Of a DNA stretch of 64,000 nt, positions 4,461 to 64,000 are shown one piece after another. The position numbers and the translations under genes were made by a program. The stretch is from an uncultured Candidatus Saccharibacteria bacterium. GTDB lineage: Bacteria; Patescibacteriota; Minisyncoccia; Phycocordibacterales; UBA918. Location of the stretch: the NCBI GenBank assembly GCA_964353135.1, contig CAYGTV010000002.1, positions 1,125-65,124 on the forward strand, written 5' to 3'. Under the pieces are notes generated by a model, which searched no databases, was not told the origin of the DNA, and saw nothing but the letters and a program-made list of their open reading frames with translations. Positions within the stretch are counted from its first letter, which is position 1, and each line of letters starts with the position of its first letter.

Positions 4461-4472
4461 AAATGTGTTGGA

Positions 4473-29746: not shown

Positions 29747-29820
29747 GGCGACTATAGTATAACGGTTAGTGCACCGGTTTGTGGTACCGGCAGTTCGGGT
29801 TCGATTCCCGGTAGTCGCCC
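29747..29820 (+). tRNA. tRNA-His(GTG) with encoded G-1
   Basis: Manual fold. G-1:C73; acceptor GCGACTA/TAGTCGC; D stem with two G.U pairs; anticodon stem CCGGT/ACCGG with loop TTGTGGT; T arm TCGGG-TTCGATT-CCCGG. CCA not encoded. Confidence 0.85.
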
Positions 29821-29882
29821 TAAAGTCAAAAGACCAATTGAACTCTTTGTTTGAATGGTCTTTTGGTTCCATTAGACGAAGT

Positions 29883-30668
29883 TTATTTTAGATTCAGAGA
29901 GTTTGACCAGATATTATCAAACATGGAACGCATCATTTTTGAATGTGCCTGTGACTGTATAAGGACTGCATATTTTTCCTTTTTAGGTGACACATACAAA
30001 GTTTTATCATCATAGATAAAGATAGTGGTGTCAAAACTGTTATGCATGTCGATCGGCAATTGTTTTATGTCTGCGTCCAAATAAAACTCATCGATCACAC
30101 TTTTACTAGGAATATCTTCCCAGAGTGCAGTTGTCTGGATTTTTCTCTTTGTCTTTTCTTTCACGTATTCCTCAACAAAATCTGCACCCATTTCATGAAA
30201 GAAGTTTTTTGCAGGCACTATAGTTCTAATAGTTTTATCTTTACTATATAAACTATAAAAAATAGTTGCCTTAATTGTTTCAAAACTATCAAAATAAGAA
30301 ACTAGTGTTTTTTCAGTATCTTTGTTTTCTGGATAGTAATCCTTCAACTTTTTTGTTTTCTCTAACAACTCATTCTGCTTCCTAATATTCTTCTGCACCA
30401 ACTCAAGCAATTTATCTAAGGGTTCAACCTGAAACTTATTGCCATAATCCTTACCCGTCTTACTCACCAAACCTCTTTTTTCAAGAGAGTTGAGAGAATA
30501 GTAAACAGTAGGTCTTTTTTCATCAGTTACTCTTATAACATCTTGAACAGACTGTGCTCCATCAAGTAAAGATACATAGACCGCTATCTCGGCTGGTGAC
30601 AACCCAATATCCTCAAGGATAATTGTAATATCTCTTTTATTCATAGTTGTATAGTCGCTATTATACAT
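29883..30668 (-). CDS. TrmB-family transcriptional regulator
   Basis: N-terminal winged HTH IAVYVSLLDGAQSVQDVIRVTDEKRPTVYYSLNSLEKRGLV plus a TrmB C-terminal domain. AT-rich. Alternative ATG at 30644. Confidence 0.55.
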   Translation of the reverse strand: MYNSDYTTMNKRDITIILEDIGLSPAEIAVYVSLLDGAQSVQDVIRVTDEKRPTVYYSLNSLEKRGLVSKTGKDYGNKFQVEPLDKLLELVQKNIRKQNELLEKTKKLKDYYPENKDTEKTLVSYFDSFETIKATIFYSLYSKDKTIRTIVPAKNFFHEMGADFVEEYVKEKTKRKIQTTALWEDIPSKSVIDEFYLDADIKQLPIDMHNSFDTTIFIYDDKTLYVSPKKEKYAVLIQSQAHSKMMRSMFDNIWSNSLNLK

Positions 30669-30736
30669 AATTGAACATATGTATCAAACTCCCTATTATG
30701 CATTAAGTAGTTCTTTAACAAACGAAGGAGAAAATA

Positions 30737-31120
30737 ATGGATAATCTCGCAATTAACATAATCTTTGGTCATTTTGTTGGAGACTTCTTTCTTCAACACA
30801 AACTGATGGCAAATAATAAGTACCTGCCTGGATGGACTGCCGCTGGATGGTGTTCACTCCATGTTCTTGTTTACACCTTAACAGTTGCTACTTTTGCGAG
30901 TAACTTCTCGCCAATATTTCTGCTGGGTGTAGCAATTCCACACTGGATTGCTGACAGGTTTTCTATTGCACACAAATGGATGCAGCTAATCGGACGAGGT
31001 GACCTTATTCCAAATGATGATCCTACAAAAGCTGCTTTTGGGGCGATTATCTATGTGACTCTGGATCAGACCTTCCATCTTGGAAGCCTCTATATCCTCA
31101 TCCTGCTAACTCAAGCCTAA
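30737..31120 (+). CDS. DUF3307-like small membrane protein
   Basis: AAGGAG SD. 3-4 TM. HxxxDxxxQ pattern. Confidence 0.4.
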   Translation: MDNLAINIIFGHFVGDFFLQHKLMANNKYLPGWTAAGWCSLHVLVYTLTVATFASNFSPIFLLGVAIPHWIADRFSIAHKWMQLIGRGDLIPNDDPTKAAFGAIIYVTLDQTFHLGSLYILILLTQA

Positions 31121-31130
31121 GGAGAATACA

Positions 31131-31493
31131 ATGGGTATGTCTATGTTTGGTTCACGGTGTTCTGACGATTCTCACAGGGATTCTTATACACCCCCAGTTT
31201 ACATTCGTGAGGAAGTGCCATTACCAGGGAATCCGAATCCTAGTAACTTCGAAATTCAAAAACTGGAGAGAGTGAACCACTTCACCATAATGTTGGTTGA
31301 GTATCCTGATTGCCTGAACTTTGAAGGGAAAAAGATTTTAGTCTTCAAAACTCTTGCATTGGGTAACATCAAAAAAATCTCTTCTCTTGACCCTCACTTT
31401 TGTGATTCCACTAGGCACACATCACCAGTCGCACGATTTATGCCTACTGATCAAGGCTGGCAGTATGCAATTGCGTTTTGTAATAACGCATAA
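31131..31493 (+). CDS. hypothetical protein (120 aa)
   Basis: AAGGAG SD. Terminator immediately downstream. Confidence 0.4.
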   Translation: MGMSMFGSRCSDDSHRDSYTPPVYIREEVPLPGNPNPSNFEIQKLERVNHFTIMLVEYPDCLNFEGKKILVFKTLALGNIKKISSLDPHFCDSTRHTSPVARFMPTDQGWQYAIAFCNNA

Positions 31494-31498
31494 TATAT

Positions 31499-31532
31499 AG
31501 GCACCCATGTACTGGGTGCCTTCTTTTATATA
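31499..31532 (+). terminator. rho-independent terminator
   Basis: Stem aggcaccca/tgggtgcct followed by TCTTTTATATA. Confidence 0.55.
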
Positions 31533-31534
31533 AA

Positions 31535-31609
31535 CACCTCCCTCGCCTCCTCGAGCCAACCCACAGTCATCTCCTCAAACTGGTTCCACCCCATGGACAG
31601 TACGTGCCC
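31535..31609 (+). repeat. degenerate copy (R0) of the 3' half of the R repeat
   Basis: ctcctcaaactggttccaccccatggacagtacgtgccc versus the R consensus ...ttccaattggttccaccc.agggtcggtagtcgccc. Confidence 0.4.
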
Positions 31610-31818
31610 AGAATGCAGAAACTCCTTTGGGAGTTTTTTGCATTCTGGGTGACTAAGTGAGTGAATAGTTTCACTCACGTCCGGGAATCGAACGCCGGAG
31701 CGATGTGAGGAATTGAAATAGTCTGGGAGACTTTTTCAAAACGAACGAGTGAGGTGTGTCCCGCGGCACCTGCTAGATTGTGACTGAAAGGAAGCAAACT
31801 AGCTTGGTGACCGTCAGG

Positions 31819-31903
31819 ACGATTCCCGGTAGTCGCCCATCATTTTAAGACAAGTTATATAAGGGTTTTCTGAGTACCCTACCGAGACGTTCGAACTGAA
31901 TGT
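31819..31903 (+). repeat. attR-like direct repeat of the tRNA-His 3' end, plus junction module b
   Basis: gacgattcccggtagtcgccc (19/19 match to the tRNA-His end), then the b module a.c.ttttgaag...tataagggttttct.agtaccct..gagacgttcgaact. Confidence 0.6.
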
Positions 31904-31996
31904 TGCTTTTTAAATATATTTATTGCATAGTTGCCTGCAGAGAACATTTACGCGACAGTCTCGCGCAGTACTCTTCTATAAAGTTCATGTGAACCA

Positions 31997-32476
31997 ATGA
32001 AAGGATTCAGGATGACCTATACAGAAATTGAGAATACCATGGAGGCGCGCAAAGCACCTCCTGGGAAGTACCGCTTGCTGCTAGCAGGTGGTGGCGCCGA
32101 GCGTCCTCTGTGCCATGTTCAGGACTATGATCGTGCTGAACTCGCTTTGGAAGCGGCTGACAAACTTCTTCGTTCGAAGGAGATCAAGGGCTGGGGCATC
32201 GTTCACGACGGCAACGGACGGATTCTCACCCTCAACGATGGTCCTTCGCAGATGTATACCTACGATGACCTTCTTAAAACTTACGGTGGAGGCAAACGTC
32301 AACTTAGCAATCGGGCGTTTACCGCTGCACATGCTGACGCAATCGAAGCTCTCCAACCGGAGAGACTGCCTGGTTGGCAGAAAGGCGACCGTATGCTGGT
32401 CTTTTGGCAAGACATTGAAAAGGCGACTGGTGCCGTTGCCCTTTGCGGTGACATTCATGGTGTAATCAGCGGTTGA
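31997..32476 (+). CDS. hypothetical protein (159 aa)
   Basis: Cassette cargo. Terminator downstream. Confidence 0.4.
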   Translation: MKGFRMTYTEIENTMEARKAPPGKYRLLLAGGGAERPLCHVQDYDRAELALEAADKLLRSKEIKGWGIVHDGNGRILTLNDGPSQMYTYDDLLKTYGGGKRQLSNRAFTAAHADAIEALQPERLPGWQKGDRMLVFWQDIEKATGAVALCGDIHGVISG

Positions 32477-32510
32477 CCACTACCCCACGCCCACAAGACG
32501 GAGAAATGCT

Positions 32511-32545
32511 CCGCCGACGTGATCTGGCGGCGGGGTTTTTCTTTT
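32511..32545 (+). terminator. rho-independent terminator
   Basis: Stem ccgccga...ctggcgg followed by ggTTTTTCTTTT. Confidence 0.5.
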
Positions 32546-32808
32546 CATCATCTATATTCCCCTATCGAAGCTAGCTTTTCTTTCACACCACTCATATATT
32601 CCTGGTCTGAGAGAATGGTCAGAACAAGATTAGGACTCTGGCCCTAGTGAGAATTGAACGAATTAAACGTTACAATTCAACGACTTTTCAGTTCGAGCCA
32701 AACACTCCCCTTACACAAAATAGTGTATTCAGGGTGGAGTGAAATTGTAGGACACTTTACAGATACATTTTTTATAGTATTTTTGCACTGAAGACAACAA
32801 GGAGTCCT

Positions 32809-33252
32809 TTGATGAAACCAATAATTTGTGAACAAATCGCTCCCCCTGAAGTATTTGACATGCTTCATGAGCTATCAATAGGTAATGAAGCAACTGAGTT
32901 CATTGGCCGGACTCTCCACGAAGCAGAGTCAGGCGAAGGTCTATGTACCTTTGATGCCAATGAGCAACCAAACAGTAGAACAATGACGTTGATGTTTATG
33001 CTGCAAGCCCGAATGACTGGTGAAGTCGACAGAGCGGAAATGCTTAGGGAAAGTGGTTTGGCGGCAGAAATATCTGACGACAACAGCGACGACCTTGAAA
33101 ACTGGGATGGTATTGCATTGGCAATGCTGTTCGCAAGCGACGAATTGTTGGACAGAATGATTGCAAGCCTTCCACCTGAAGTGCGAAGCGTCATCATCTC
33201 CCAAATGCCAACCGAGCAACATGCACTTGCTCGTTCAATGTTCACAACATAG
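32809..33252 (+). CDS. hypothetical acidic protein (147 aa)
   Basis: AAGGAG SD. Cassette cargo. Confidence 0.4.
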   Translation: MMKPIICEQIAPPEVFDMLHELSIGNEATEFIGRTLHEAESGEGLCTFDANEQPNSRTMTLMFMLQARMTGEVDRAEMLRESGLAAEISDDNSDDLENWDGIALAMLFASDELLDRMIASLPPEVRSVIISQMPTEQHALARSMFTT

Positions 33253-33266
33253 AAAAAGAGACAAAC

Positions 33267-33464
33267 ATGTCAGATGATTTTGAATCATTCAAAGCCAGGG
33301 TGGAAGATGTTATTGTTGAGAAATTCAACGAATTTCGGCTTACCCAGGCAAACACGCTGCGGGAATCCGCAGCTTCAGCAACAGGTCAACGTAAAGACTT
33401 GCTGCTCAAAATGGCTGACGACTGGGAAAATGCCGCCACTCCTACGATAGAGGCTGCAGACTAA
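33267..33464 (+). CDS. hypothetical small protein (65 aa)
   Basis: Translationally coupled to the upstream gene. Confidence 0.3.
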   Translation: MSDDFESFKARVEDVIVEKFNEFRLTQANTLRESAASATGQRKDLLLKMADDWENAATPTIEAAD

Positions 33465-33524
33465 ACTTCCCCCCTTACAATTGAGCTATCCATTCGCTTC
33501 GGCAGTGGGTGGCTTTTTCTTTTG

Positions 33525-33641
33525 CCTACCAACCTAGTGGAACCACTTTCTCCCCTCTCACCTGAAACAAACCATTGCGTCACTTAACCATTCAAGACAC
33601 AGCTGTTCCAATTGGTTCCACCCGAGGGTCGGTAGTCGCCC
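33525..33641 (+). repeat. R1: 117-nt cassette-junction repeat ending in a tRNA-His 3'-end mimic
   Basis: cctaccaacctagtggaaccac...ccaattggttccacccgagggtcggtagtcgccc. ~90% identical to R2 and R3. Internal long-range inverted repeat gtggaacca/tggttccac. Followed by module b (33642..33703). Confidence 0.7.
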
Positions 33642-33732
33642 AACGTTTTGAAGTAGATTTTATAAGGGTTTTCTAAGTACCCTAATGAGACGTTCGAACT
33701 ATAAGTAAAAAGCCGCCCCGAGGGGCGACCGA

Positions 33733-34281
33733 TTAAGCATAATTTTTCTCAAGATACGCTTGGAGCTTTTCAATAGCTCTTCTTCGCATCGAAGTTTTGA
33801 CTGTCTGTTCTAGTGTCATCTCAGCCCAAGTAAGAGCCTCACCTTCTGGAACAAAGATGGGATTCCAACCGAAGCCCTCGCCTCTAGGTGATTCAGGTAC
33901 ACTGCCGCGGCACTCACCCAAGAAAAGATGGACACCTGTTTCATCACAAAGTGCGAAGCACGTCTCGGCCACTGCCCTCCGCTCCTTGTGACCCTTAAGC
34001 ATATCCGTCATACCTTGATTTCCAACAGATTCCAGAAACCATTTGACGAATGTACCAGGCAGTCCTTTGAGAGCCAGGAAGGTCAGAGCAGTATCTTCAA
34101 CCAGAACTGGGATACCAAGTTCAGCATAAGCGGCTTTTGCTTTTTCAGTCGCAACCTCTTCGAGAATCAAAGATTGAATCTCTGGAATATCCAGTTTTGC
34201 GTGTTGCACCTCAAAACTGAGATATTTACCGAGCTGAGCGGCTTTGTTGGGGTTTCCCGTAATAAACGTAAGTGATTTCAT
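33733..34281 (-). CDS. rdgB: non-canonical purine NTP pyrophosphatase (RdgB/Ham1 family)
   Basis: LTFITGNPNKAAQ motif. AAAGGA SD before the ATG at 34281. Terminator overlaps the stop. Confidence 0.7.
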   Translation of the reverse strand: MKSLTFITGNPNKAAQLGKYLSFEVQHAKLDIPEIQSLILEEVATEKAKAAYAELGIPVLVEDTALTFLALKGLPGTFVKWFLESVGNQGMTDMLKGHKERRAVAETCFALCDETGVHLFLGECRGSVPESPRGEGFGWNPIFVPEGEALTWAEMTLEQTVKTSMRRRAIEKLQAYLEKNYA

Positions 34282-34393
34282 AACTTTGTCCTTTCTACAG
34301 AATCTACGTTCAGCGTACACTCATTCTGGTTACTTTCAAGTTTTCAGTATCAAAATAAAATATTGGAATAAACACCGTTTCATCCCCCAATCT

Positions 34394-34523
34394 CTCAAAC
34401 ACAGTTCGAACCTTACAGGTTCAGTACACCTTTTGGCTAGATTATTTCGTACACTCATAATCTACCTCAAAAGCTCTTTACAACTCACCCCGTGAGCTGT
34501 AAACATCCTCTACGACGTCGCTC
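34394..34523 (+). repeat. split copy of junction module d
   Basis: ctcaaacacagttcgaacc (34394..34412) and atcctctacgacgtcgctc (34505..34523), separated by a 92-nt insert. The same module is contiguous at 38777 and 40993. Confidence 0.45.
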
Positions 34524-34617
34524 AATATATTGACATATACATTTTTTGTGTTATTTTGATTTTGGACAGATGTGTCCTTAACTGCACCCAAGGGTGCTCC
34601 AGATGTGGAGAAATAAC

Positions 34618-34998
34618 ATGAGTGCTATTACTGTCGAAGCTCTTTTGACGGGCGCAAAGGCGATTGAATTAGCGAGAGACGAAGTTCGTCATTTCCTCGG
34701 CATCATGAAGCCAATATGTTCAAACTGCAGTCTCATCACTGAAAAATTTACTCTTCCTGATACAGAACGACGTTTCTGGTGGCAACTGAAACAGACCATT
34801 CACAAAAAATCGTTTTTCCAGCTTTGGGAAGTGGTCTCTTACGGTCACATTGAACGGCTATGGGAAGGGTTCGCTGACGATGTGCCATCTTCGGATAAAG
34901 TGATTTGCGTACGGAAAGCGCTGCCGTTTCTTCTTTCAGACTGCGAGAAGAAGATTCCAGATTTTGCAGAGAAAATTCAGCCCTATCTGATTTCCTGA
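34618..34998 (+). CDS. hypothetical protein
   Basis: GGAGA SD before the ATG at 34618. Track ORF starts at 34594. Confidence 0.35.
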   Translation: MSAITVEALLTGAKAIELARDEVRHFLGIMKPICSNCSLITEKFTLPDTERRFWWQLKQTIHKKSFFQLWEVVSYGHIERLWEGFADDVPSSDKVICVRKALPFLLSDCEKKIPDFAEKIQPYLIS

Positions 34999-35026
34999 TT
35001 CGAAACAGGTTTCAATACCGTAACTG

Positions 35027-35061
35027 CCCCGCCTACAATTGGCGGGGCTTTTTTTCTTTTC
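35027..35061 (+). terminator. rho-independent terminator running into R2
   Basis: Stem ccccgcc-tacaatt-ggcgggg followed by CTTTTTTTCTTTT. Confidence 0.6.
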
Positions 35062-35064
35062 CCC

Positions 35065-35181
35065 CCTACCACCCCAGTGGAACCACTTTCGCCCCTCTTA
35101 CCTGAAACAAATCCTTGCGTCGCTTAACCAATCGAGACACATCTCTTCCAATTGGTTCCACCCTATGGACAGTAGTCGCCC
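35065..35181 (+). repeat. R2: 117-nt cassette-junction repeat
   Basis: cctaccaccccagtggaaccac...ccaattggttccaccctatggacagtagtcgccc. Followed by module c (35182..35248), which contains the hairpin ccctaga-ttct-ctaggg. Confidence 0.7.
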
Positions 35182-35341
35182 TACTGCCCTAGATTCTCTA
35201 GGGACTATATAAATAAAGGTATTCTGGTTCGACTATACGAGGTTTTTTCGTTGTCCACTGGACTTAGTGGAACCAAAGAAAAAGCCGCCCCATCGTGAGA
35301 CAGGACGGCATGTAAGTACACTTCAAGAACAGCCAGCTACT

Positions 35342-35737
35342 TCACCGCCAGTTCCGTGGCCACATTTCAGCAATGGCAGCCGAATGCGTCAGACTACCCA
35401 TGAATGCTTCCTCAAAGAGCACTCCTTGCTCGACAGCTTCATGCGGATTCCAGAACTTGAAGCGAAATTCCTGAACGATGGACATGTTCGGGTATCGCTT
35501 CTTTGCTCGGTCCAACGCCGCTGACAGACGAACACCTTCAGGCGACTCTGCAGTGAACGGAAAAGCCAGAAAAGAAGACATCCATCCACCTTTGAGAAGG
35601 ACTTCGTCAACTGCATGTTGCAGCAAAACATCACCGTCAGATACTTTGTCGAGTGCGTAGCGCAAACGCTGCACTGCGGGATGGCTCCATCCACGAACTT
35701 GTGATTCGCAGACTTTTGTTTCAGGTACAGTGGTCAT
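35342..35737 (-). CDS. hypothetical protein (131 aa)
   Basis: Cassette cargo. Confidence 0.35.
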   Translation of the reverse strand: MTTVPETKVCESQVRGWSHPAVQRLRYALDKVSDGDVLLQHAVDEVLLKGGWMSSFLAFPFTAESPEGVRLSAALDRAKKRYPNMSIVQEFRFKFWNPHEAVEQGVLFEEAFMGSLTHSAAIAEMWPRNWR

Positions 35738-35776
35738 GTGAGATTTCCTTTCAAGTCAAGTTTTGTCTCAAGATTT

Positions 35777-36364
35777 CTACTCAGATTCAGACAAGGCTCT
35801 GTCGGCCCAAAAGCCTTGTACTGCTTCATGCAGCAATAGTTCGAATGCCTTACCTTCGATTTTATATTGCTTCCAGGTGGTACCGTCCTGTTCAATGCGC
35901 TGGCCGTAGTAGTGCGCACCAAGACCTTCGTAGAGCCTGACGGCGTCGTAGTTCCAGTCCAAGACCTCAAAAGAGATTGTGTGGGTGTATTCACACACTT
36001 CCTTTGCTATCTTGCTGAAGAACTGCTTGGCCACACCTTGCCGCCGGACACTTTGCTCGACATACAAGTCATGCAGGCAAAACTCCCAGGAAGAGGCAAA
36101 CGAACTGAATCCACCATAGAACCCCATGGCAAATCCAACTGAAGAGCCATGCTCTGTCTCGGCAACCCAGGCATGTAGTTGTCGAGGGTCAGGCACTGGA
36201 AAGATACCTTCACGACTGATGTCCGTGTTTTGCAAAAAAAGCGCGAGGCTCGTTATACTGGGCTTGAAACTGTCTTCCATTTTTTCATACTTAGCAAGAC
36301 GCTTCATGAGTTGCACGATATTGCGTGTATCATCACGGGTGGCTCTGCGGATAGTGATTGTCAT
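35777..36364 (-). CDS. GNAT family N-acetyltransferase
   Basis: Acetyl-CoA-binding pattern (QxxGxG/A-like RRQGVAKQ). 195 aa. Confidence 0.65.
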   Translation of the reverse strand: MTITIRRATRDDTRNIVQLMKRLAKYEKMEDSFKPSITSLALFLQNTDISREGIFPVPDPRQLHAWVAETEHGSSVGFAMGFYGGFSSFASSWEFCLHDLYVEQSVRRQGVAKQFFSKIAKEVCEYTHTISFEVLDWNYDAVRLYEGLGAHYYGQRIEQDGTTWKQYKIEGKAFELLLHEAVQGFWADRALSESE

Positions 36365-36512
36365 ATCAAAGACCTTTCTTCTGTTTGTTTACTAGTTCAA
36401 GAGCCACAGTACCAAAAAGTATTGAATAAAGGAAGTATATGTGGCATTGTTCGAACGAAACAGCACCTCTGTTACGAGAGTATCGTAAAGTTCAAATTTG
36501 GGAGAAGACCCG

Positions 36513-37214
36513 ATGATTGATATTCACGGCGGGTCGAAAGACCCACGAGCAGCTCGACTCAGCAACTTCACCAACCGACCCTTCATGTTTGATGGCATTG
36601 CGTGTGCAGGTATCGAAGGTATCCTGCAAGCTCTTAAGGAGCCTGAAGCAGCAAAACAGCCAGGTATCTGCGCTCTTCGAGGCAAGGCGGCCAAGAAAGC
36701 CGAAAACGACTTAAATGGCTGGAAAGAGTCCCAAACACTGTGGTGGAAAGGTGTCCCCTACGAACGGTGTGGCCAGTCCTACCAAGTGCTCATCACCTGT
36801 ATCTACAATGCGGTGTATGAACAGGACCCAACCTTCAAAGAAGACTTGCTTACCGTTGAACTGGATGATATTTGCCACAGCATCGGCAATCCCGACCAAC
36901 GGGACACTGTGCTGACAGAGGTGGAGATGATTCACCAACTCAACAGGTTACGACTGCGAGCACTTCGGTCTGAAGGCAAACTACCTTCCAAAAAACCAAC
37001 TATGGACAATATTCCACACTACCGTGGAGTAAAGAAAGACGGCGACCCATTAGTTTTTCTGAAGCGACACTACGCCGACTGGATAGCTCTTGGTTTTCTA
37101 ACACAGGTGAACCTCCGTCAACATGACGAAAAGCTGGTAAACTCCCTGAAGTACAAACTTCGTACCGAAGGCAGAAAGCTAGCCGACATGGTTCCGCCTG
37201 GCATCAGGCGCTAA
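36513..37214 (+). CDS. possible NADAR (DUF1768)-like domain protein
   Basis: LSNFTNRPFMFDGIACAGIEGILQALK resembles the NADAR/YbiA FSNF..P...DG....SxEHxxQAxK motif. GGGAGA SD before the ATG at 36513. Confidence 0.3.
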   Translation: MIDIHGGSKDPRAARLSNFTNRPFMFDGIACAGIEGILQALKEPEAAKQPGICALRGKAAKKAENDLNGWKESQTLWWKGVPYERCGQSYQVLITCIYNAVYEQDPTFKEDLLTVELDDICHSIGNPDQRDTVLTEVEMIHQLNRLRLRALRSEGKLPSKKPTMDNIPHYRGVKKDGDPLVFLKRHYADWIALGFLTQVNLRQHDEKLVNSLKYKLRTEGRKLADMVPPGIRR

Positions 37215-37215
37215 C

Positions 37216-37268
37216 CACCCTGCACCAAGGAGACATCCTCTCCAATTAGTGCAGGGTGTTTTCTTTTG
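37216..37268 (+). terminator. hairpin terminator running into R3
   Basis: Stem caccctgcac/gtgcagggtg with a long loop, followed by TTTTCTTTTG. Confidence 0.45.
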
Positions 37269-37385
37269 CCTACCAACCTAGTGGAACCACATTCTCCCCT
37301 CTTACCTGAAACAAACCCTTGCATCGCTTAACCAATCGAGACAGAGCTCTTCCAATTGGTTCCACCCAAGGGTCGGTAGTCGCCC
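37269..37385 (+). repeat. R3: 117-nt cassette-junction repeat
   Basis: cctaccaacctagtggaaccacattctcccctcttacctgaaacaaacccttgcatcgcttaaccaatcgagacagagctcttccaattggttccacccaagggtcggtagtcgccc. Confidence 0.7.
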
Positions 37386-37484
37386 AGCGAAAAATATCTT
37401 CAGTAAACGAAGATATACAACAACATCTGAGTTCTGATATTTACTACACGTAATGGGAATTAGGAACTTTGGTATACTTTTTGT

Positions 37485-38498
37485 ATGAAAAACATTCAAT
37501 ACATTGAAGTGACAGGCTCTGCGTACGAACGTGGATTAAAGCAAGGAGTGGAGCTACAGGAAAGAATCAAACAAAATATTGAATTCTATAAGACTGTTGT
37601 TGATATACCAGAAGATGAACTCTTCCCCCAAGTGAGCCATTTTGCTCAAGTGATAAAGGATTTTAATGAAGAGTACGCCACTGAAATAGAAGCTATTGCC
37701 GAAGGAGCTGGGGTTGATTCAATCTGGATTTATTTCCTCAACTGTCGTACCGAACTAATCAACAACAAGAAAGTAACCGAGTGCACCACGTTCTTTTTCA
37801 AAGAAACGGCTATTTTGGGTGAAAATTGGGACTGGTCACAAAGGAGTGAGAAACTCATGATTGTAATCAAAGCAACGTCAGAGGATGGTCACTCGTATAC
37901 ACAAGTGACTGAACCTGGGATTTTAGGAAAGATAGGTATGAACGACAGAGGTGTTGGAGTATGCCTCAACATCTTGTTTGCCGAACGAGACAGAGTGTTT
38001 GGAGTACCAATTCATATTCTATGTAGAGCAGTGTTGGATTCTGAAGATGTTGTCACTGCTAAGCGTTTGGTTGAGGAGTACGGTAAAAACACAGCTAGTA
38101 ACTTACTCATCGGTGATGCCAGTGGAGCAAGCACTGACCTTGAGCTGGACGGTTTAAAAGTACTGGAACACACCACAGATGGAGCCGTTCTATTTCACAC
38201 CAATCACTACTTACGTGAAGAAAACAAAGACGAATGGATTCCTAAAAACTCACTAGCTAGACATACTTGTATAACAGGGAAAGTAATCGAACTGAACAGC
38301 TATTCAGTTGACGATGCTAAAGCCCTTCTCTCCGACAAGTCTGAGGGTGAAAAAGCGTTGTGTCGTGCATACTCACCAAAACCGCTAACAGGAATGCACG
38401 GAACAGTTGCGTCTATTGTGATGGACTTGAATAAGCGACAACTATACGTTACTGATGGAAATCCGATCGAGAATGAGTACGTAGTGTTTGATGTGTAG
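37485..38498 (+). CDS. C45-family peptidase / acyl-CoA:6-APA acyltransferase-like Ntn hydrolase
   Basis: ECTTFFF nucleophile region (Cys at the autoprocessing site). 337 aa. Confidence 0.5.
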   Translation: MKNIQYIEVTGSAYERGLKQGVELQERIKQNIEFYKTVVDIPEDELFPQVSHFAQVIKDFNEEYATEIEAIAEGAGVDSIWIYFLNCRTELINNKKVTECTTFFFKETAILGENWDWSQRSEKLMIVIKATSEDGHSYTQVTEPGILGKIGMNDRGVGVCLNILFAERDRVFGVPIHILCRAVLDSEDVVTAKRLVEEYGKNTASNLLIGDASGASTDLELDGLKVLEHTTDGAVLFHTNHYLREENKDEWIPKNSLARHTCITGKVIELNSYSVDDAKALLSDKSEGEKALCRAYSPKPLTGMHGTVASIVMDLNKRQLYVTDGNPIENEYVVFDV

Positions 38499-38547
38499 AA
38501 TAAATTAAAATACTTGCATTTGTAATAAAGTGTGTTACTATCTTACC

Positions 38548-38712
38548 TATCCAGTGCTCGGCGCTGGAAACAAGGACTAGGTCGTAACAAGTGTTACGTA
38601 GCGGAAGCTGCGGAACAAACGCATGGGGTGTAGTCCCAGGCGGTCGGTGAGAGCAAATCCATCGACCGCCACCACAGTTCAAATTTGCCAGCCGCTATGT
38701 GTCTGGTCTTTT
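38548..38712 (+). ncRNA. candidate small RNA, family unknown, flanked by a promoter and a terminator
   Basis: Promoter: TTGCAT (38514..38519), 16-nt spacer, TACTAT (38536..38541). Internal hairpins: 7-bp ccagtgc/gcgctgg, 8-bp ggcggtcg/cgaccgcc, and agc-GGAA-gct tetraloop. Ends in a hairpin plus TTTTTTT at 38709..38715. No ORF. Convergent genes on both sides. Confidence 0.3.
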
Positions 38713-38776
38713 TTTATATTGAAACAATTCCAGTGTTAATGAACGATGGAATATACAAAGTCACATCTCCCCTCTC

Positions 38777-38880
38777 CTCAAACACAGTTCGAACTTCCTC
38801 TACGACGTCGCCCAGCATTTTGAAGCAAGTATTGTAAGGTTTTTCTGGATACCCTACCTGGACGATTGAACCAAAACAAA
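38777..38880 (+). repeat. junction module d (tRNA-end variant cgacgtcgccc at 38803..38813) plus a module b variant
   Basis: ctcaaacacagttcgaacttcctctacgacgtcgccc, then agcattttgaagcaagtattgtaaggtttttctggataccct... Confidence 0.55.
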
Positions 38881-38921
38881 ACCCCTCATAACGGGGGTAT
38901 TGTTTTGAGTAATGTATGGAG

Positions 38922-40343
38922 TTAATCTTTAATCTCTAGATCAAGTGCCCCAGAGATCACTGATTGTGAAAGTCCTGAACGAGTAGCTAATGCCGTAATA
39001 AGCGTGGTCTTTCCTGTGTATGGCATTTCAAACTCATCTCGTGTACCACTGTATTCGAGTCGAACCTCAGCGATACCCTCTTCTACTCGTACTTCAATCT
39101 TCACTCGACCATCAGAATCATCAGGGGAATCTCCGCTATCGTCACCACTAGAATCCGAGTCGTCGTCAGAACCATTATTAGAATTAGAAGATGAATTATC
39201 ACTATAGTCATCAGAATCTTTGGCTCGGCTCGCTCGATCTTCAATCTCAAAATCTAGAACACGCTCGACGGTCGCGCGGTCGACATTAAAGCGAGCAACG
39301 ATTTCAGCGATTACTTCCTCTCCAGTGTCGGCAGTAGTTTCAAAGGTAGTTTTTCGGTCATTGATTTCCACCTTTATAATCGTGGTGTCGGTGAAGACAT
39401 CAGCTTCGGCTTCAAAGAAACTACTACTTGAAGAACGACTGTCATCGCTTGAATCATCGTCTTCACGTACTCGCACCTCTACTTCACCGTCCTTCTCTTC
39501 AATTCGAATTCGAGTTTCACCATCTCTAATTTCAATCCGAGAATCGCCATCATCATCATTTCGCACTTCTACTTGTGCCGAGCTGCTATCAAACGAGCGC
39601 AGTAATTCTTCAACAAATCTAGATTGATCATCATCGCTCAGTGAGCCAGTCAATTCTTCAAACAGCGTTACCGATGTACGCACGCGGTCGTCATCACTAG
39701 ACACGCTAGTAGACAAATCCTTTACCCGGCTCGCTCGATCTTCAATCTCAAAATCAAGGACTCGGTCGACTGTTGCGCGGTCAACATTGAAGCGAGCAAC
39801 GATTTCAGCGATTACCTCCTCTCGAGTGTCGGCAGTAGTTTCAAAGGTGGTCTTTCGGTCATTGATTTCCACCTTTATAATCGTGGTGTCAGAGAAGACA
39901 TCAGCTTCGGCTTCAAATTGGGTAATAATTACTTCATTTGAATTATCATCATTACTTGAATTGTCCTCCTCAAGTAGCGAACGGAGTTCGGCTAATCGTT
40001 CTTCTGCAAAAACAATCTTCAGACGTGCTTCCGCTTCGTCGCTTGTCGCGAGTGCAAGACGAACATCTTCAATCGCTTGGTCAATTGGGAAAAGTAAGTC
40101 TCCTGGGCGAGCTGACTCTGATGCGGCAGCTGTTCCGCCAACTCCTAGCATAAGTACGATAGCTGCAATAATTGGTGCCATAGGTTTTTTAAAATTAAAG
40201 TTTAATAGATATGGTGACGGAATCGGACTTGCTGTCACAGTTTCAGTTTTAATTCGCTCCCATAACTCGTTTTTTTGTGCCGTAGTGAGTGAAGCGGCTT
40301 TTTGGTCGAGGTGAGTCTCTAAGTTATTTTTTTTCATAGACAT
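38922..40343 (-). CDS. anti-sigma factor-like membrane protein with an internally duplicated extracytoplasmic domain
   Basis: Cytoplasmic N-terminus, one TM, then two ~66-aa near-identical repeats (FEAEADVF.DTTIIKVEINDRKTTFETTADT.EEVIAEIVARFNVDRATV.RVLDFEIEDRASR). Acidic Ser/Asp-rich tails. Directly downstream of the ECF sigma. Confidence 0.45.
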   Translation of the reverse strand: MSMKKNNLETHLDQKAASLTTAQKNELWERIKTETVTASPIPSPYLLNFNFKKPMAPIIAAIVLMLGVGGTAAASESARPGDLLFPIDQAIEDVRLALATSDEAEARLKIVFAEERLAELRSLLEEDNSSNDDNSNEVIITQFEAEADVFSDTTIIKVEINDRKTTFETTADTREEVIAEIVARFNVDRATVDRVLDFEIEDRASRVKDLSTSVSSDDDRVRTSVTLFEELTGSLSDDDQSRFVEELLRSFDSSSAQVEVRNDDDGDSRIEIRDGETRIRIEEKDGEVEVRVREDDDSSDDSRSSSSSFFEAEADVFTDTTIIKVEINDRKTTFETTADTGEEVIAEIVARFNVDRATVERVLDFEIEDRASRAKDSDDYSDNSSSNSNNGSDDDSDSSGDDSGDSPDDSDGRVKIEVRVEEGIAEVRLEYSGTRDEFEMPYTGKTTLITALATRSGLSQSVISGALDLEIKD

Positions 40344-40351
40344 ATTACTAC

Positions 40352-40891
40352 TTATGAAGGAAGTTCAATTAAAGCTGATAATGTTTTGAGCGCACGATGG
40401 TGTCGCACACGGACAGCTGATTCGGTCATTTGAATAAGTGAAGCAATTTCTTTGAAGGAGTACCGTGACCAGTGATGTAAGATAACAATTTCGCGAGTCT
40501 CGGATTCCAATTGTGCCAGAGCTCGCCTAATCTCATCCTGCGTCTCACTATTTTCAGAGACAGCGGAAATGGTGTTTTCATCGAGCAACACTGTTTGCTC
40601 ATCAAGACTTGTTTCCAAACGAGCGTACCACTTAGCTAATTTTCGTTTGGTGATCACAAAAACAAACGAATAAAACTGTGGGGCCGACTCATAGGTGAAA
40701 CTTGGTAGCGCTTTGTACAAATCGACAAACACCTCTTGAGTGAGGTCAAGAGCGTCATCTTCTCGTGAAGTTCTGTACTTTACATAGTTGTACACCTTAT
40801 CAACTAAGTGTTCATACAAAGCACGAAAAGCATCTGCCTCATTGGCGACGGCCCGTAGTACAAGGTCTTTTATTTCCTGTTCTTGCTCCAT
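40352..40891 (-). CDS. ECF-type RNA polymerase sigma factor
   Basis: Sigma-70 region 2 (DLTQEVFVDLYKAL) and region 4 (SFKEIASLIQMTESAVRVRHHRALKTL). ATG at 40891; track start is TTG at 40906. Confidence 0.7.
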   Translation of the reverse strand: MEQEQEIKDLVLRAVANEADAFRALYEHLVDKVYNYVKYRTSREDDALDLTQEVFVDLYKALPSFTYESAPQFYSFVFVITKRKLAKWYARLETSLDEQTVLLDENTISAVSENSETQDEIRRALAQLESETREIVILHHWSRYSFKEIASLIQMTESAVRVRHHRALKTLSALIELPS

Positions 40892-40992
40892 ATTTACTTC
40901 ACTCAATCATACTATGGATAGATTTGCCCGAAACGTTACATTTTTCAATTCTTTATAAAAGTTGGAATGTAGACAATTTCATCCTGTAATTG

Positions 40993-41096
40993 CTCAAACA
41001 CAGTTCGAACATCCTCTACGACGTCGCCCTACTGTCCTCGATTCTCTAGGGACTATATAAATAAAGATATTTTGGTTCGACTGTACGAGGTTCTTC
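40993..41096 (+). repeat. junction module d (core cgacgtcgccc at 41019..41029) plus module c
   Basis: ctcaaacacagttcgaacatcctctacgacgtcgccc, then tactgtcctcgattctctagggactatataaataaagatattttggttcgactgtacgagg, near-identical to 35182..35248. Confidence 0.6.
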
Positions 41097-41120
41097 GTGT
41101 TCCTACTGTCTGTAGTGGAA

Positions 41121-41894
41121 TCAAGCTTTTGTAGCCTCTGGAACAGGCTTTTTATTTAACTGACTAAATGCCAATTTTGGAGCGAGACGCTGCGACAGCT
41201 TAAGTAGTTTTGAAACACCAGGAGTAATTTCCACCTTGCCACGTATAAAGTCATTCCAGAATATATCAGCCAGTTTTTCAGTAGGCATTGGTTTGAGTAT
41301 ATCGTCGCTCAAATCAGCTTCTTTAGCTAATTTGGTATCAACGACAGGGGGCAATAGTTCAACCACCTTAATACCATGTAAAGCTAACTGGGGTCGGATA
41401 GCCATACTCCAGAAATGCATAGCTGCTTTAGTGCCAGAATACACCGGCGCTTGTGCATATGGCACATAGGCAAGCCCGGAAGAAGTATTTACCAGGACCG
41501 GATTTTGACTGACCTTGAGTTGCGGCAAGAAGTAATGCAGCATTCGCACAGGGGAGCTAAAGTTGATATCAATTTCAGTTAGTTGTGCAGTGAGGTCACT
41601 GCCTTCAGCTCCAGCGTCCATCAGCTTCATAATTCCAGCGTTGTTCATCAGAATATCTACCCCGCCAAATTGAGTTTGGATGTGTTCGGCCAGTGCCTTG
41701 ATGTCTGCTTCAGACGTCACATCACTACGCATAATATTAATTTCAGGTAGTTCACTTTTAACTTGCTGAAGTTTTTCTTGACTGAGTCCGGTCACGATAA
41801 CTGTGTTGTTGTGCTCAAGGAATTTCTTGGCGATAGCTAGCCCGATACCCGAGCTTCCACCAGTAATCAAAACGACGTTGTTAGATGTTTTCAT
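41121..41894 (-). CDS. SDR-family oxidoreductase
   Basis: TGGSSGIG Rossmann motif and YSGTK catalytic dyad. 257 aa. Confidence 0.8.
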   Translation of the reverse strand: MKTSNNVVLITGGSSGIGLAIAKKFLEHNNTVIVTGLSQEKLQQVKSELPEINIMRSDVTSEADIKALAEHIQTQFGGVDILMNNAGIMKLMDAGAEGSDLTAQLTEIDINFSSPVRMLHYFLPQLKVSQNPVLVNTSSGLAYVPYAQAPVYSGTKAAMHFWSMAIRPQLALHGIKVVELLPPVVDTKLAKEADLSDDILKPMPTEKLADIFWNDFIRGKVEITPGVSKLLKLSQRLAPKLAFSQLNKKPVPEATKA

Positions 41895-42027
41895 AGGTTA
41901 TGTAATTTATTAGTATTATCTATTTTTTATAAAGTGTGCAATCACGTCTTTTCTAAACAGCAACAGTAGTGCTAGCAGCTGGAACACATAGTGCTCGAGA
42001 GACAGTAGGTGCCCAGTGTTTTAGGTC

Positions 42028-42732
42028 CTATTTAGTAACGAATACTGAGGGTATGCTTGGTGTCTGCAAAACTCTAGTGATGAGATATACGTGGATAAAT
42101 ATTGCTAGAGGCACTTGGAAAATAGAAATTATCGTCAGTGGTGGCATCGCCATCGCAGTAGGTTCAGGCACAAGCTGTATCAGACCAAGGAACGATAGTC
42201 CGACTATGGTAAATGCTACAGCAAAGTCTAATAGACCGAAACCACACCAGCCGACAACAAACAATTTTTCTTTTATCGACTTGTGATACAGCAGCCACGC
42301 TATTACTACTGCGCTACTTGCAACCAGTAAGTCATATACTCCACTGACAAAACCAACTTCAAACGGTAAGGCTCCTTGGAAATAATAAAAGAGAAAAGCG
42401 AGGCCTACTATGCGATATGCTTGGGTACTGACAAGTACCCAAGTCGGCACAGCATCCAAAAAGTTTTTAAATGCTGAACTTTTTTGCCAAGCTATAAATA
42501 GACCAGCTAGAGGAATCATTAGCAAGATGCTGAAGAACATAAATCCTATCAGATCACCAGACTGCCATTCTCCTTTGACTTGTAGGTATGGGATTTGCGC
42601 CAAACCAACTGCGAGGACTAACCACGCTAGTACCAAATAACTTACAGCTCGTAACTTATTCCAACTATAGGCCGCAATCAGCCCTGTTACCACCAACCCT
42701 ATAGCTATAATCGCTAATGCTCCTACATTCAT
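42028..42732 (-). CDS. polytopic membrane protein
   Basis: ~7 TM. AT-rich. Confidence 0.45.
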   Translation of the reverse strand: MNVGALAIIAIGLVVTGLIAAYSWNKLRAVSYLVLAWLVLAVGLAQIPYLQVKGEWQSGDLIGFMFFSILLMIPLAGLFIAWQKSSAFKNFLDAVPTWVLVSTQAYRIVGLAFLFYYFQGALPFEVGFVSGVYDLLVASSAVVIAWLLYHKSIKEKLFVVGWCGFGLLDFAVAFTIVGLSFLGLIQLVPEPTAMAMPPLTIISIFQVPLAIFIHVYLITRVLQTPSIPSVFVTK

Positions 42733-42735
42733 ATG

Positions 42736-43230
42736 TTACATATTATTTTTAAGTCTGCGACTCAGCAACAAGTAGAAAATATAGAAGTGACTAATAAAGG
42801 CCGCCACTCCATACGTCACAAACATAAGCCAAATAAAGCCTAAGTTCTGGTTGTATAGTTCTAATGCAAAGAATTGCGGGAACGCATTAATCAAATCAGT
42901 GAACCCAACGATATTAAATACCCAAACCAAAACGATGGCTGACTGCCACTTCCCCTTCAAAGCGATAGCTGCAATAATCGCTAAAATACTTGTAGCCAGA
43001 TCCCACAAACCAACAGTAGTTAAAAACTCAATCGGGAAACCTCCGTAAAACTGTTCTGTTGCCATAAAAGACAACCCAACATACCGAAAGGCATTAAAGA
43101 AGACAAACGGCAGTAACGCATCGTAAAGAGATAGTTTTATTACTCGAGGATGAATCCACCATTTTAGCGCTAAGAAAATAGAAATCGCTCCAACTATTGC
43201 TTGAATATTAATGATTAAAAAATTACTCAT
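42736..43230 (-). CDS. membrane protein
   Basis: 4-5 TM. Confidence 0.45.
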   Translation of the reverse strand: MSNFLIINIQAIVGAISIFLALKWWIHPRVIKLSLYDALLPFVFFNAFRYVGLSFMATEQFYGGFPIEFLTTVGLWDLATSILAIIAAIALKGKWQSAIVLVWVFNIVGFTDLINAFPQFFALELYNQNLGFIWLMFVTYGVAAFISHFYIFYLLLSRRLKNNM

Positions 43231-43232
43231 AA

Positions 43233-43718
43233 CTATTCATAATTAACGTTATTTTTGTGTTGTCCGACCCGACTAGCATCGTAAGCTTTGAGAGCAAACA
43301 CCGCTGAGCAAAGAGTAATCACAACCCGTACCCAGTGCATAAAGAGCCACATACTGAGATTACTCGCTACGTCTGCCACTGCAATACTTTGATCCATAAA
43401 CTTTAGATTTAATGGCAAATGATAGCCAGCTGTTTGAACATTTACAATCAATAACGCAATTACTACATATGACCAGTATCTTCTTGTTTGTGTACCTTTT
43501 GGACTGGTGAAAAAAAGATAGATAGATCCTAGAAATGCTGGTAGCAGTGTGACCATAGTTGGTGCTAGTAAAAGTGGAAAATCAATTGCGAAGCTTTCCA
43601 TAAACGCAACTGGCTCTAGGCTCTGCCAGTGCAGACCGTAGCTGAGCCCAATATTAATCATGTTTCCAGCAAAAGCGCCGATAGCGATGATAACTACGTA
43701 AGGAATATATTTTTTCAT
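43233..43718 (-). CDS. membrane protein (DUF1772-like, 4 TM)
   Basis: 4 TM. ~160 aa. Confidence 0.4.
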   Translation of the reverse strand: MKKYIPYVVIIAIGAFAGNMINIGLSYGLHWQSLEPVAFMESFAIDFPLLLAPTMVTLLPAFLGSIYLFFTSPKGTQTRRYWSYVVIALLIVNVQTAGYHLPLNLKFMDQSIAVADVASNLSMWLFMHWVRVVITLCSAVFALKAYDASRVGQHKNNVNYE

Positions 43719-43805
43719 TATGTAATATTACTTGCAAATCAATAGTAATACAAGACATTACCTGTATAAAAGAATACTTGCACGTTATACTGATGCTACG
43801 TAAAT

Positions 43806-44228
43806 ATGAAGAAATTCCGTTCCAACTGCCCTATCGCTTCAACGCTTGATCTTATTGGAGATAAGTGGACACTATTGCTTGTGCGAGATATGCTCATGGG
43901 TCATAAAAAAACCTTTAAAGAATTTTCTAATTCTGCAGAGCGTATAGCCCCAAATATTTTGACCGTTCGGCTCAAGCAACTAGAGCAATTTGGTATTGTC
44001 ACCAAGCAAAAACTACCGACCAACAAGAAGGAGAACATATATCTACTAACCAAAGCCGGCATAGCCCTCGCACCCGCTATAATCGATCTTGCTTTTTGGG
44101 GTAGTGAGTACGCAAAAAAATATAATGATACGATTCCTACTCCAAAGCAACTTGGTTTTACCAGTAACAAAACACAACTAGTGAAAAAGATACGATCTGA
44201 TTACTTGTTGATGGTTAATTCTTTATAA
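43806..44228 (+). CDS. HxlR-family winged-helix transcriptional regulator
   Basis: CPIASTLDLIGDKWTLLLVRDM...FKEF, the HxlR signature. Divergent from the membrane-protein operon. Confidence 0.7.
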   Translation: MKKFRSNCPIASTLDLIGDKWTLLLVRDMLMGHKKTFKEFSNSAERIAPNILTVRLKQLEQFGIVTKQKLPTNKKENIYLLTKAGIALAPAIIDLAFWGSEYAKKYNDTIPTPKQLGFTSNKTQLVKKIRSDYLLMVNSL

Positions 44229-44304
44229 TCATACGTACTTAGAAACGTTCATCAGATGGTTTGAGATAAACATGAGCCGACAGTCAATTTGGCAAACATC
44301 CCCC

Positions 44305-44368
44305 TTGCTTCACACAACTACCTACTGAACTAGTGGGACTACTTTCTTTCCCCTGACCTGAAACAGCT
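44305..44368 (+). repeat. degenerate partial R repeat marking the distal end of the array
   Basis: cctactgaactagtgggactactttctttcccctgacctgaaacagc, matching the first ~60 nt of R. Confidence 0.4.
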
Positions 44369-62371: not shown

Positions 62372-62446
62372 GCCCCTGTAGTTTAATGGATAAAACGAGA
62401 GGCTTCTATCCTTTTGATCCGGGTTCGATTCCTGGTGGGGGCACCA
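62372..62446 (+). tRNA. tRNA-Arg(TCT), CCA encoded
   Basis: Manual fold. Acceptor GCCCCTG/TGGGGGC (two G.U pairs); D arm GTTT-AATGGATA-AAAC; anticodon stem AGAGG/CCTTT with loop CTTCTAT; T arm CCGGG-TTCGATT-CCTGG. Confidence 0.8.
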
Positions 62447-63932: not shown

Positions 63933-64000
63933 ACATTTCTAAGAATCAGCGTCTATAGGTTCGGACCCCAATGCGAATTTGGAATCATTTCTATCTTGGT

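Follow-up and report, generated by a model that had tools for sequence, protein, structure and literature searches.

Downstream of the tRNA-His(GUG) gene in a 64,000-nucleotide stretch of DNA from an uncultured Saccharibacteria bacterium (contig CAYGTV010000002.1, positions 1,125 to 65,124; the whole stretch is referred to below as the window) lies an island of nine junction-bounded segments that reaches position 44365. ARAGORN and Rfam place the tRNA at 29748-29820 on the plus strand, and Rfam gave no other match in the array (all else E >= 0.65). Every junction ends in GTCGCCC, the 3' terminus of the tRNA, with one GTCGCTC and one GTGCCC as variants, and there is an exact 19-nt repeat of the tRNA-His 3' end (CGATTCCCGGTAGTCGCCC) at 31820-31838. 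An earlier description made from the letters alone (the sequence-only reading) had proposed an array of cassettes anchored at tRNA-His, with mixed cargo in mixed orientation and no integrase inside. This is borne out: no ORF of the array has an integrase or recombinase domain. The island was probably built by serial recombination of the large serine recombinase (LSR) type, which would have stacked recombinase-less cassettes. Our analysis suggests that most of these cassettes end in the severed, still coding 3' end of a serine-recombinase gene, and that tRNA-targeting serine recombinases build gene-capture islands in these tiny bacteria.

Recurring end modules are called R (with a subtype R'), d, b, c and X. 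The features of the island are:

29748-29820, plus strand: tRNA-His(GUG); its 3' part is a B-type (attB-like) half-site, with GGTTC 18 nt from the junction and the common core GGTAGTCGCCC at 29810-29820
29821-31609: segment 1, with a TrmB-like regulator (minus), a DUF3307 protein (plus), a 120-aa ORF (plus) and a terminator at 31499-31521; right end R', with the core variant GTACGTGCCC
31529-31609, minus strand: coding tail of R', 27 codons, peptide GHVLSMGWNQFEEMTVGWLEEAREVFI and stop
31610-31838, plus strand: module X, 229 nt, containing a terminator hairpin (about 31610-31647) and an inverted fragment of the T arm (31677-31699); its right end (31820-31838) is a faithful B-type copy of the tRNA-His 3' end
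31839-33641, plus strand: segment 2, with b (31839-31900), three ORFs of unknown function (plus), a terminator at 33490-33512 and R1 (33525-33641)
33642-34523: segment 3, 882 bp, with b (33642-33703), a terminator and a Ham1-family NTP pyrophosphatase (minus); right end a split copy of d, its two parts (34356-34412 and 34502-34523) about 89 nt apart and its core the variant GTCGCTC
34524-35181, plus strand: segment 4, 658 bp, with a TTGACA-type promoter immediately after the junction (34530-34557), a 134-aa ORF, a terminator at 35026-35048 and R2 (35065-35181)
35182-37385: segment 5, with c (35182-35290), a 131-aa ORF (minus), a GNAT acetyltransferase (minus), a T4 gp30.3-like protein (plus), a hairpin and R3 (37269-37385)
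37386-38813, plus strand: segment 6, with a hairpin left end, a protein of the acyl-CoA:6-APA acyltransferase family (C45/AAT; plus), a 230-nt non-coding stretch and d (38734-38813)
38814-41029: segment 7, with b (38814-38875), a terminator, a DUF5667 protein (minus), an ECF sigma factor (minus) and d (40950-41029)
41030-44365: segment 8, with c (41030-41138), a short-chain dehydrogenase/reductase (SDR; minus), three membrane proteins (minus) and an HxlR regulator (plus); its right end (44321-44365) is a truncated R, the 5' 45 nt only, which abuts the conserved GH3 flank

Segment size thus runs from 0.23 to 3.3 kb and not, as first given, from 1.2 to 3.3 kb (882, 658 and 229 bp for 33642-34523, 34524-35181 and 31610-31838), and the junction at 34513, transcribed before as cgacgtcgccc, actually reads cgacgtcgcTc. 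A repeat finder and nhmmer profiles located R, b, c and d at every place where the sequence-only reading had put them, with no further copies in the rest of the window. R1, R2 and R3 are 79-89% identical over 142 nt (nhmmer E 1e-44 to 1e-48), and there are partial copies at 31541-31609 (3' part) and 44321-44365 (5' part). The terminator hairpins upstream of R, the inverted repeat within it and the inverted T-arm fragment at 31677-31699 are likewise present. Two assignments had to be changed. The module d, taken previously for a left end, sits to the left of its junction and is therefore a right end, a short version of R. The copy at 31541, described before as degenerate, belongs to a second conserved subtype of R that is found also in another locus (L018); since this R' is followed by X as a separate 229-nt module, there are nine segments.

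Are such repeats peculiar to this genome? Two scans with a pattern from the 3' end of R, one of GTDB genomes and one of JGI metagenomes, led to 26 loci, of which L006 (Erythrobacter), one of the seven genome loci, is a partial match only. In these 26 other loci nhmmer found 55 copies of R (36 of them unique), usually two to six per locus and all co-oriented. The sources are Saccharibacteria, Nomurabacteria (the named records are metagenome-assembled genomes, MAGs) and metagenomes; b, c and d likewise occur in related loci, and X is conserved in L003 and, in two copies, in L004. In L002, L004, L015, L016, L018 and L022 tRNA-His heads the array in the same orientation, making seven such arrays with that of the window. 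Like the window, L002, L018 and L022 have the genes for MscL and ribonucleotide reductase (RNR) upstream, and MscL alone is within the locus in L004, while GH3 is at the distal end in L027 and L011. The cargo is reshuffled: an MFS-transporter cassette has differing neighbours in L001/L026, L005, L021 and L028, and one two-gene cargo has an R end in L002 and a d end in L005. The commonest cargo in related arrays is toxin-antitoxin pairs of the RelE and MazF types. Between genomes the R+b and R+c modules are 80-86% identical, as against 66-75% for the RNR, MscL and GH3 flanks. From this spread, the reshuffling and the identity of modules versus flanks it follows that the repeats are neither chance nor the generic dispersed repeats that would have undone the sequence-only reading. 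No recombinase is present in the arrays at any of the loci among the Pfam matches listed. IMG/VR viral contigs gave 0 matches to R with two patterns, and the LSR relatives there are at most 32% identical, which is uninformative.

The GH3 flank is preceded by a 3'-truncated R both in the window (44321-44365, model positions 1-45) and in L027 (flipped; 7354-7453 and 9561-9612; model positions 1-100), and in L027 a partial d follows the GH3 gene. GH3 may itself be an old, fixed cassette.

R is in large part a protein-coding fragment. Its last 81 nt read, on the minus strand, as 27 codons and a stop (peptide GRLPTLGWNQLEELCLDWLSDARVCFR), and the frame ends exactly where the codon periodicity ends. 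Among the 36 unique copies, entropy by codon phase in these 81 nt is 0.115/0.26/0.527, whereas the first 36 nt are flat; for the 54 columns free of constraint from the search pattern the values are 0.106/0.647/0.312 (permutation p=0.0003). The minus frame has 104 synonymous and 78 non-synonymous differences with no new stops, against 12-40 and 130-153 in four other, non-coding frames. The R tail is thus under purifying selection. R' (window 31529-31609, and L018) has the same length of 27 codons and retains the motif GWNQ.EE....WL..AR.VF. None of the 55 copies has a long in-frame ORF upstream. A similarity to 'KxPxGxF' upstream of R was considered as a trace of a parent protein and rejected, because it proved to be translated terminator hairpins, and a tmRNA-like reading of the start-less ORF was dropped on account of the wrong strand and the lack of any ARAGORN or Rfam hit.

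The inverted repeat in R is real, with 19 pairs in two helices (94.5% paired versus 16-47% with a slid partner), but compensatory changes were not seen, and DNA folds are weak (z between -0.3 and -3.9). These facts bear on two explanations based on folded single strands. In the first, the island would be an integron-like array or CALIN (an integrase-less integron array), and an integron-type integrase with its gene elsewhere would recombine R and d as folded, attC-like single strands. Such an array would account for a single conserved site at the 3' end of each cassette with variable left ends, for the two-box imperfect inverted repeat of R with its asymmetric spacer (1 nt vs 4 nt), and for toxin-antitoxin pairs as the commonest cargo. 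Nevertheless it is very unlikely: IntI was not found, nor any tyrosine recombinase among the Pfam matches listed or in a phmmer screen with XerD; R lacks the RYYYAAC/GTTRRRY boxes, its junction lies 7 nt beyond the stem and its paired boxes do not covary; cassettes are of mixed orientation and bring TTGACA-type promoters of their own, right after the junction; and R is conserved in sequence and coding. The second would make R the hairpin right end of a unit moved by HUH single-strand transposition (Y1, RAYT or IS200-like) and cut 7 nt 3' of the stem. The spacing of about 7 nt behind the hairpin does resemble HUH nick sites, and a RAYT-like Y1 protein adjoins an R in five loci (L010, flipped, 4042-4716; L012, 7054-7728; L019, 12-686; L020, 5166-5672; L027, 7598-8104). 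However, the RAYT genes are flanked by REP hairpins of their own (AAATGGTGGCTGACCCCATTT), different from R and in inverted orientation on the two sides, no RAYT-like protein is encoded in the window and most arrays are without one, and the left ends have no conserved hairpin, so that we give this explanation hardly any credence. As the RAYT genes of L010, L012, L019 and L027 own REPs unrelated to R, RAYT/Y1 was rejected as the cassette enzyme. The RAYT genes of L012 and L019 are 100% identical; what sets the two loci apart is 1.5 kb of sequence (a gene of 465 aa) lying between the REP and the R that follows.

What kind of gene would end in R? The same genome holds a precedent in a separate element near the right end of the window:

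62372-62446, plus strand: tRNA-Arg(TCT), attL of a separate integrated LSR element
62406-63932, minus strand: LSR gene, 508 aa; its last 13 codons (LVPPPGIEPGSKG and stop) are the antisense of the tRNA-Arg 3' part

The element continues in L042, the same genome beyond the right end of the window, and measures about 6.7 kb (from window 62372-64000 into L042 4160-10932). It carries genes for an OLD-like ATPase, a RepSA/REP_ORF2-G2P replication protein, a 70-aa ORF and the LSR. At its far end (L042 4160-4280) there are the host terminator hairpin, the core TGGTGCCCC and then a severed tail, VPLVSECWNQILYEIHNFLVDDKMSRCPN and stop (...WNQILYEIHNF...). An element at tRNA-Glu in L031 has the same layout, with the core GTGACCCTA and the tail TLSTTIWNQVVSSVTNFTVTMK and stop: in both, the LSR reads into the tRNA at one end, and host terminator, core and severed tail stand at the other. 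(For L032 attR was not found within 10 kb.) The anatomy of these two elements places attP inside the recombinase gene. In this Patescibacteria-wide LSR family, then, attP lies within the 3' end of the recombinase's own gene; integration into a tRNA 3' end fuses the gene body to a tRNA-antisense tail, which constitutes attL, and the native last 20-30 codons remain at the far end of the element as attR, followed by the terminator that formerly lay downstream of the tRNA.

The window LSR has 2762 relatives, and tails were examined in the best 120. Of these, 89 end in the pattern L[VG]-x3-GIEP, which is a tRNA T arm read in antisense, and 13 have a native, non-tRNA tail, all 13 with L[VGA]-x6-[WL]N-x-[LIVFM]. 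R fits the latter pattern as (L)|G-RLPTLG-WNQL, and the tRNA-His antisense fits the former as (L)|G-RLP-GIEP. Against a profile of 14 native tails R scores 8.1 bits, a value reached by 8 of 5000 shuffles, and the two copies of R' score 11.8 and 17.1 bits (shuffles, made for the window copy only, reach its score in 4 of 5000 cases). We infer that R is the severed tail of a tRNA-His-specific LSR gene (27 codons, stop and a 36-nt 3' untranslated region), that R' is a diverged R and d a short version of 11 codons, and that all three would serve as P-type half-sites of that enzyme. Judged by motif, site geometry and coding signal, GGTAGTCGCCC would be the core common to attP and attB, with the crossover in its last 5 nt, CGCCC.

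The geometry of the sites is that expected of serine integrases, in whose sites the motif bound by the zinc-ribbon domain is 5 bp closer to the crossover in attB than in attP (PMC3783163). In all tRNA-His copies the T-loop motif GGTTC ends 18 nt before the junction and in every R 23 nt before it, as does AGTTC in every d with an intact 3' part. The bona fide elements have the same 5-nt offset between attL and attR (9 vs 14 nt after the core in L031, 11 vs 16 nt in L042), so that tRNA-His, R, d and both elements agree with the attP/attB offset of LSRs. The WN codons (TGGAAC) represent the zinc-ribbon-domain motif on the opposite strand, which explains why conservation within the tails is highest there. 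The shared core is 7-11 nt long (GTCGCCC or GGTAGTCGCCC). Position -6 from the junction, which is T or C, goes with R and not with the resident tRNA (L002, L004, L016 and L022); as this polymorphism stays with R, exchange would fall within the last 5 nt.

These sites also bear on classical accretion by tyrosine integrases, in the manner of integrative and mobilizable elements (IMEs), their cis-mobilizable relatives (CIMEs) or tycheposons, which was the comparison drawn by the sequence-only reading. R would then be a P arm with arm-type sites and b and c P' arms, the integrases being lost or acting in trans. Tyrosine integrases usually target the 3' ends of tRNAs, the exact repeat of 19 nt from the tRNA end at 31820-31838 resembles a classical attR, and tandem stacks split by partial tRNAs have been described for tycheposons (bioRxiv 10.1101/2020.12.28.424599). 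Yet no tyrosine recombinase appears in the window or the 27 loci, either among the Pfam matches listed (25 families at most for the related loci) or in a phmmer screen with XerD. On the right of the crossover no inverted half-site is conserved, and this explanation leaves the 5-nt GGTTC offset, the coding periodicity and the LSR-tail motif unaccounted for. We regard it as improbable; site geometry and the coding content of R point instead to an LSR.

The left ends of the cassettes are far less uniform than the right ends. There are at least eight recurrent types (b, c, X, a type with ATTTTAAGAAGC, a hairpin type, TTGACA promoters, simple terminators and a TAG(C/T)(T/G)AGAATGA type), which follow tRNA-His, X ends, R and d interchangeably. 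Many open with a terminator hairpin, like the host flank at attR of L031 and L042. In L002 and L004, moreover, the sequence that follows tRNA-His recurs after the last R; the L004 copy is X, 97.8% identical over 229 nt. These terminator-type left ends and duplicated flanks fit the view that left ends are former tRNA-downstream flanks. The serial site-specific integration of elements with conserved ends that was proposed at the outset therefore stands in one part and not in another: the repeats are real element ends in arrays headed by tRNA-His, but many left ends would be flanks picked up from beside the tRNA. Mobilisation in trans, part of the same proposal, received no support: neither a cognate tRNA-His recombinase nor an excised circle or an empty site was found. 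A tblastn search with 17 family members found no LSR pseudogene remnants at cassette left ends.

On the plus strand the inverted T-arm fragment of X (31660-31700, also in the X copies of L004) reads ...SRPGIERR, which resembles the LSR-family tails of tRNA type, and it may be what is left of an attL in the opposite orientation.

LSR-type stacking could have proceeded as follows. An LSR element would integrate at tRNA-His and then excise by way of a more distal R instead of its own, carrying the intervening DNA off as cargo. After integration in a new host, excision with the proximal R would leave the cargo beside the tRNA, and repeats of this cycle would stack recombinase-less cassettes, the newest adjoining the tRNA. 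Under such hitch-hiking each cassette is expected to start with a former tRNA-downstream flank (terminator or promoter) and to end in R or d, and R would be under purifying selection because any R used in excision must complete a working recombinase. It is the only reading we found that explains why a translatable recombinase tail is kept in recombinase-less cassettes. A broader version, which we put forward tentatively and consider less likely to be right than wrong, is that Saccharibacteria and other Patescibacteria widely possess a capture platform made of a serine recombinase and a tRNA gene. Its cassettes would bear a spare functional recombinase C-terminus, the LSR would pick up DNA by excising with a distal tail-site and drop it by excising with its own, and the swap between native and tRNA-encoded tails would act as a switch between integrated and free states.

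Several observations weigh against LSR-type stacking. No LSR body lies beside tRNA-His or any R in 27 loci, a tRNA-His-antisense tail occurs in the protein collection only on ORFs of 27-54 aa, and a search of 5.8 billion protein clusters with the R peptide returned a single 54-aa ORF; with protein and locus searches negative, the cognate tRNA-His recombinase is still unseen. The reverse comparison, an HMM of R tails against LSR tails, was not significant, so the similarity is at the level of motifs only. An LSR normally requires a right half-site, and to the right of the junctions there is little conserved information (at most 0.87 bit per position, with weak purine enrichment at +9 to +11). 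Canonical serine integrases recombine attP with attB only, attL x attR requiring a directionality factor; under so strict a rule, repeated use of the tRNA junction and a distal R demands relaxed partner choice. Finally, look-ups of exact proteins in the source sample gave only short contigs; no excised circle, empty site or near-identical strain pair turned up for this window.

The missing recombinase is also what favours another history, in which the R ends are fossil scars left by past LSR elements, and cassettes are now shuffled solely by RecA-mediated exchange after natural transformation, with R, X, b, c and the flanks as portable homology. The long duplicated flanks agree with this (in L004 X is repeated with 97.8% identity over 229 nt, and in L002 one flank stands behind both tRNA-His and R), as do the nearly invariant stretches of about 36 nt in R and the presence of type IV pilus genes in this genome. 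Purifying selection on the R tail would, however, be unexpected for a mere patch of homology, and the junctions are nucleotide-exact at GTCGCCC beside at least eight unrelated types of left end. We therefore hold exchange by homology alone to be unlikely, though the least so of the four rivals, and favour serial LSR-type recombination.

Which known systems does the array resemble? In the literature searched there was no paper on these arrays or on this LSR family. Closest in working are the composite SCC islands of staphylococci. In SCC and pseudo-SCC elements the Ccr enzymes are LSRs that act at the 3' end of rlmH; tandem units repeat the target 3' end, and many are recombinase-less and thought to be mobile in trans. 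The two thus have in common a serine recombinase, a target at the 3' end of a gene, and tandem units devoid of a recombinase. The target here, however, is a tRNA instead of rlmH and the units are 0.23-3.3 kb instead of 20-60 kb; the window LSR is not a Ccr (Ccr models are its best NCBIfam matches but far below threshold, 130 bits vs the CcrB cut-off of 900); and here attP is inside the recombinase gene, hence the coding recombinase tail at each junction. Accretion of CIMEs, IMEs and integrative and conjugative elements (ICEs), at tRNA-Lys and other genes in streptococci, likewise stacks recombinase-less att-flanked units at a tRNA 3' end, but with tyrosine integrases and att cores conserved on both sides, whereas the signs here are of the serine type and only the left side is conserved.

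The tycheposons of Prochlorococcus are 10-20 kb long and are defined by an integrase and replication hallmark genes (bioRxiv 10.1101/2020.12.28.424599). Their islands share with ours growth next to the tRNA, partial tRNAs between elements, and flanking DNA carried along and left as island material, and a full and a partial target tRNA flank the units in both; the present cassettes fall short of that size and have no integrase or replication genes. Integrons and CALINs share small cassettes with one conserved 3' site, frequent toxin-antitoxin cargo and integrase-less arrays, but here there is no IntI, attC consensus or attI-Pc platform, cassettes have their own promoters, and the site is a fragment of a coding gene. 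The integrases of SSV-type archaeal viruses and the integration-dependent immunity systems of mycobacteriophages also have attP in a gene, so that integration splits or re-tails it and excision restores it. They involve tyrosine recombinases or repressor genes and form no cassette arrays; here a serine recombinase exchanges its C-terminal 20-30 residues for a tRNA-antisense tail. A gene split at attP is found in the LSR family and would apply by extension to R, the likeness to SSV-type systems being a working analogy and not membership. Having compared their defining features with those of the array, we conclude that it belongs to none of the SCC, CIME, tycheposon or SSV-type systems.

The genomes of candidate-phyla bacteria are tiny and contain few recognised mobile elements, and the gain of accessory genes in these bacteria is therefore poorly understood. 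Flanked by MscL/RNR and a GH3 gene, the locus described here, downstream of tRNA-His, is a conserved hot spot at which toxin-antitoxin pairs, transporters, regulators and enzymes are traded across genera as units of 0.5-3 kb. If the LSR reading is true, this would be a second, tyrosine-recombinase-free route to integron-like cassette arrays, and a natural case in which integration rewrites the C-terminus of the serine integrase itself. It would also point to tRNA-targeting serine integrases with readable attB/attP pairs, potentially useful in genome engineering.

In ERR3534985, a sample that contains the exact proteins of the window, two Logan short-read contigs (L008 and L009) break off about 40 nt or less from tRNA-His and at the c/d junction (about 41030-41100). 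The array repeats break short-read assemblies, so such islands are probably under-represented in MAGs.

Some smaller observations concern individual genes. The small RNR subunit gene upstream of the array (27393-28706) bears an N-terminal ATP-cone, according to the Pfam families listed for the identical gene in L008. The stretch of about 230 nt between the AAT-family gene and d in segment 6 (38500-38730) has no ORF and no Rfam match at E<=1. Within the DUF5667 gene of segment 7 (38922-40343, minus strand) two directly repeated copies of 202 nt, 91% identical, lie 501 nt apart (39215-39416 and 39716-39917). One of the loci L016-L028 encodes a bAvd-like protein together with a reverse transcriptase (RVT_1), the hallmark pair of diversity-generating retroelements. 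Lastly, a 278-aa gene outside the array (55317-56153) has a homologue in L012 (5185-5970) that is a cassette between two d modules and has a Pfam match to the inositol monophosphatase family.

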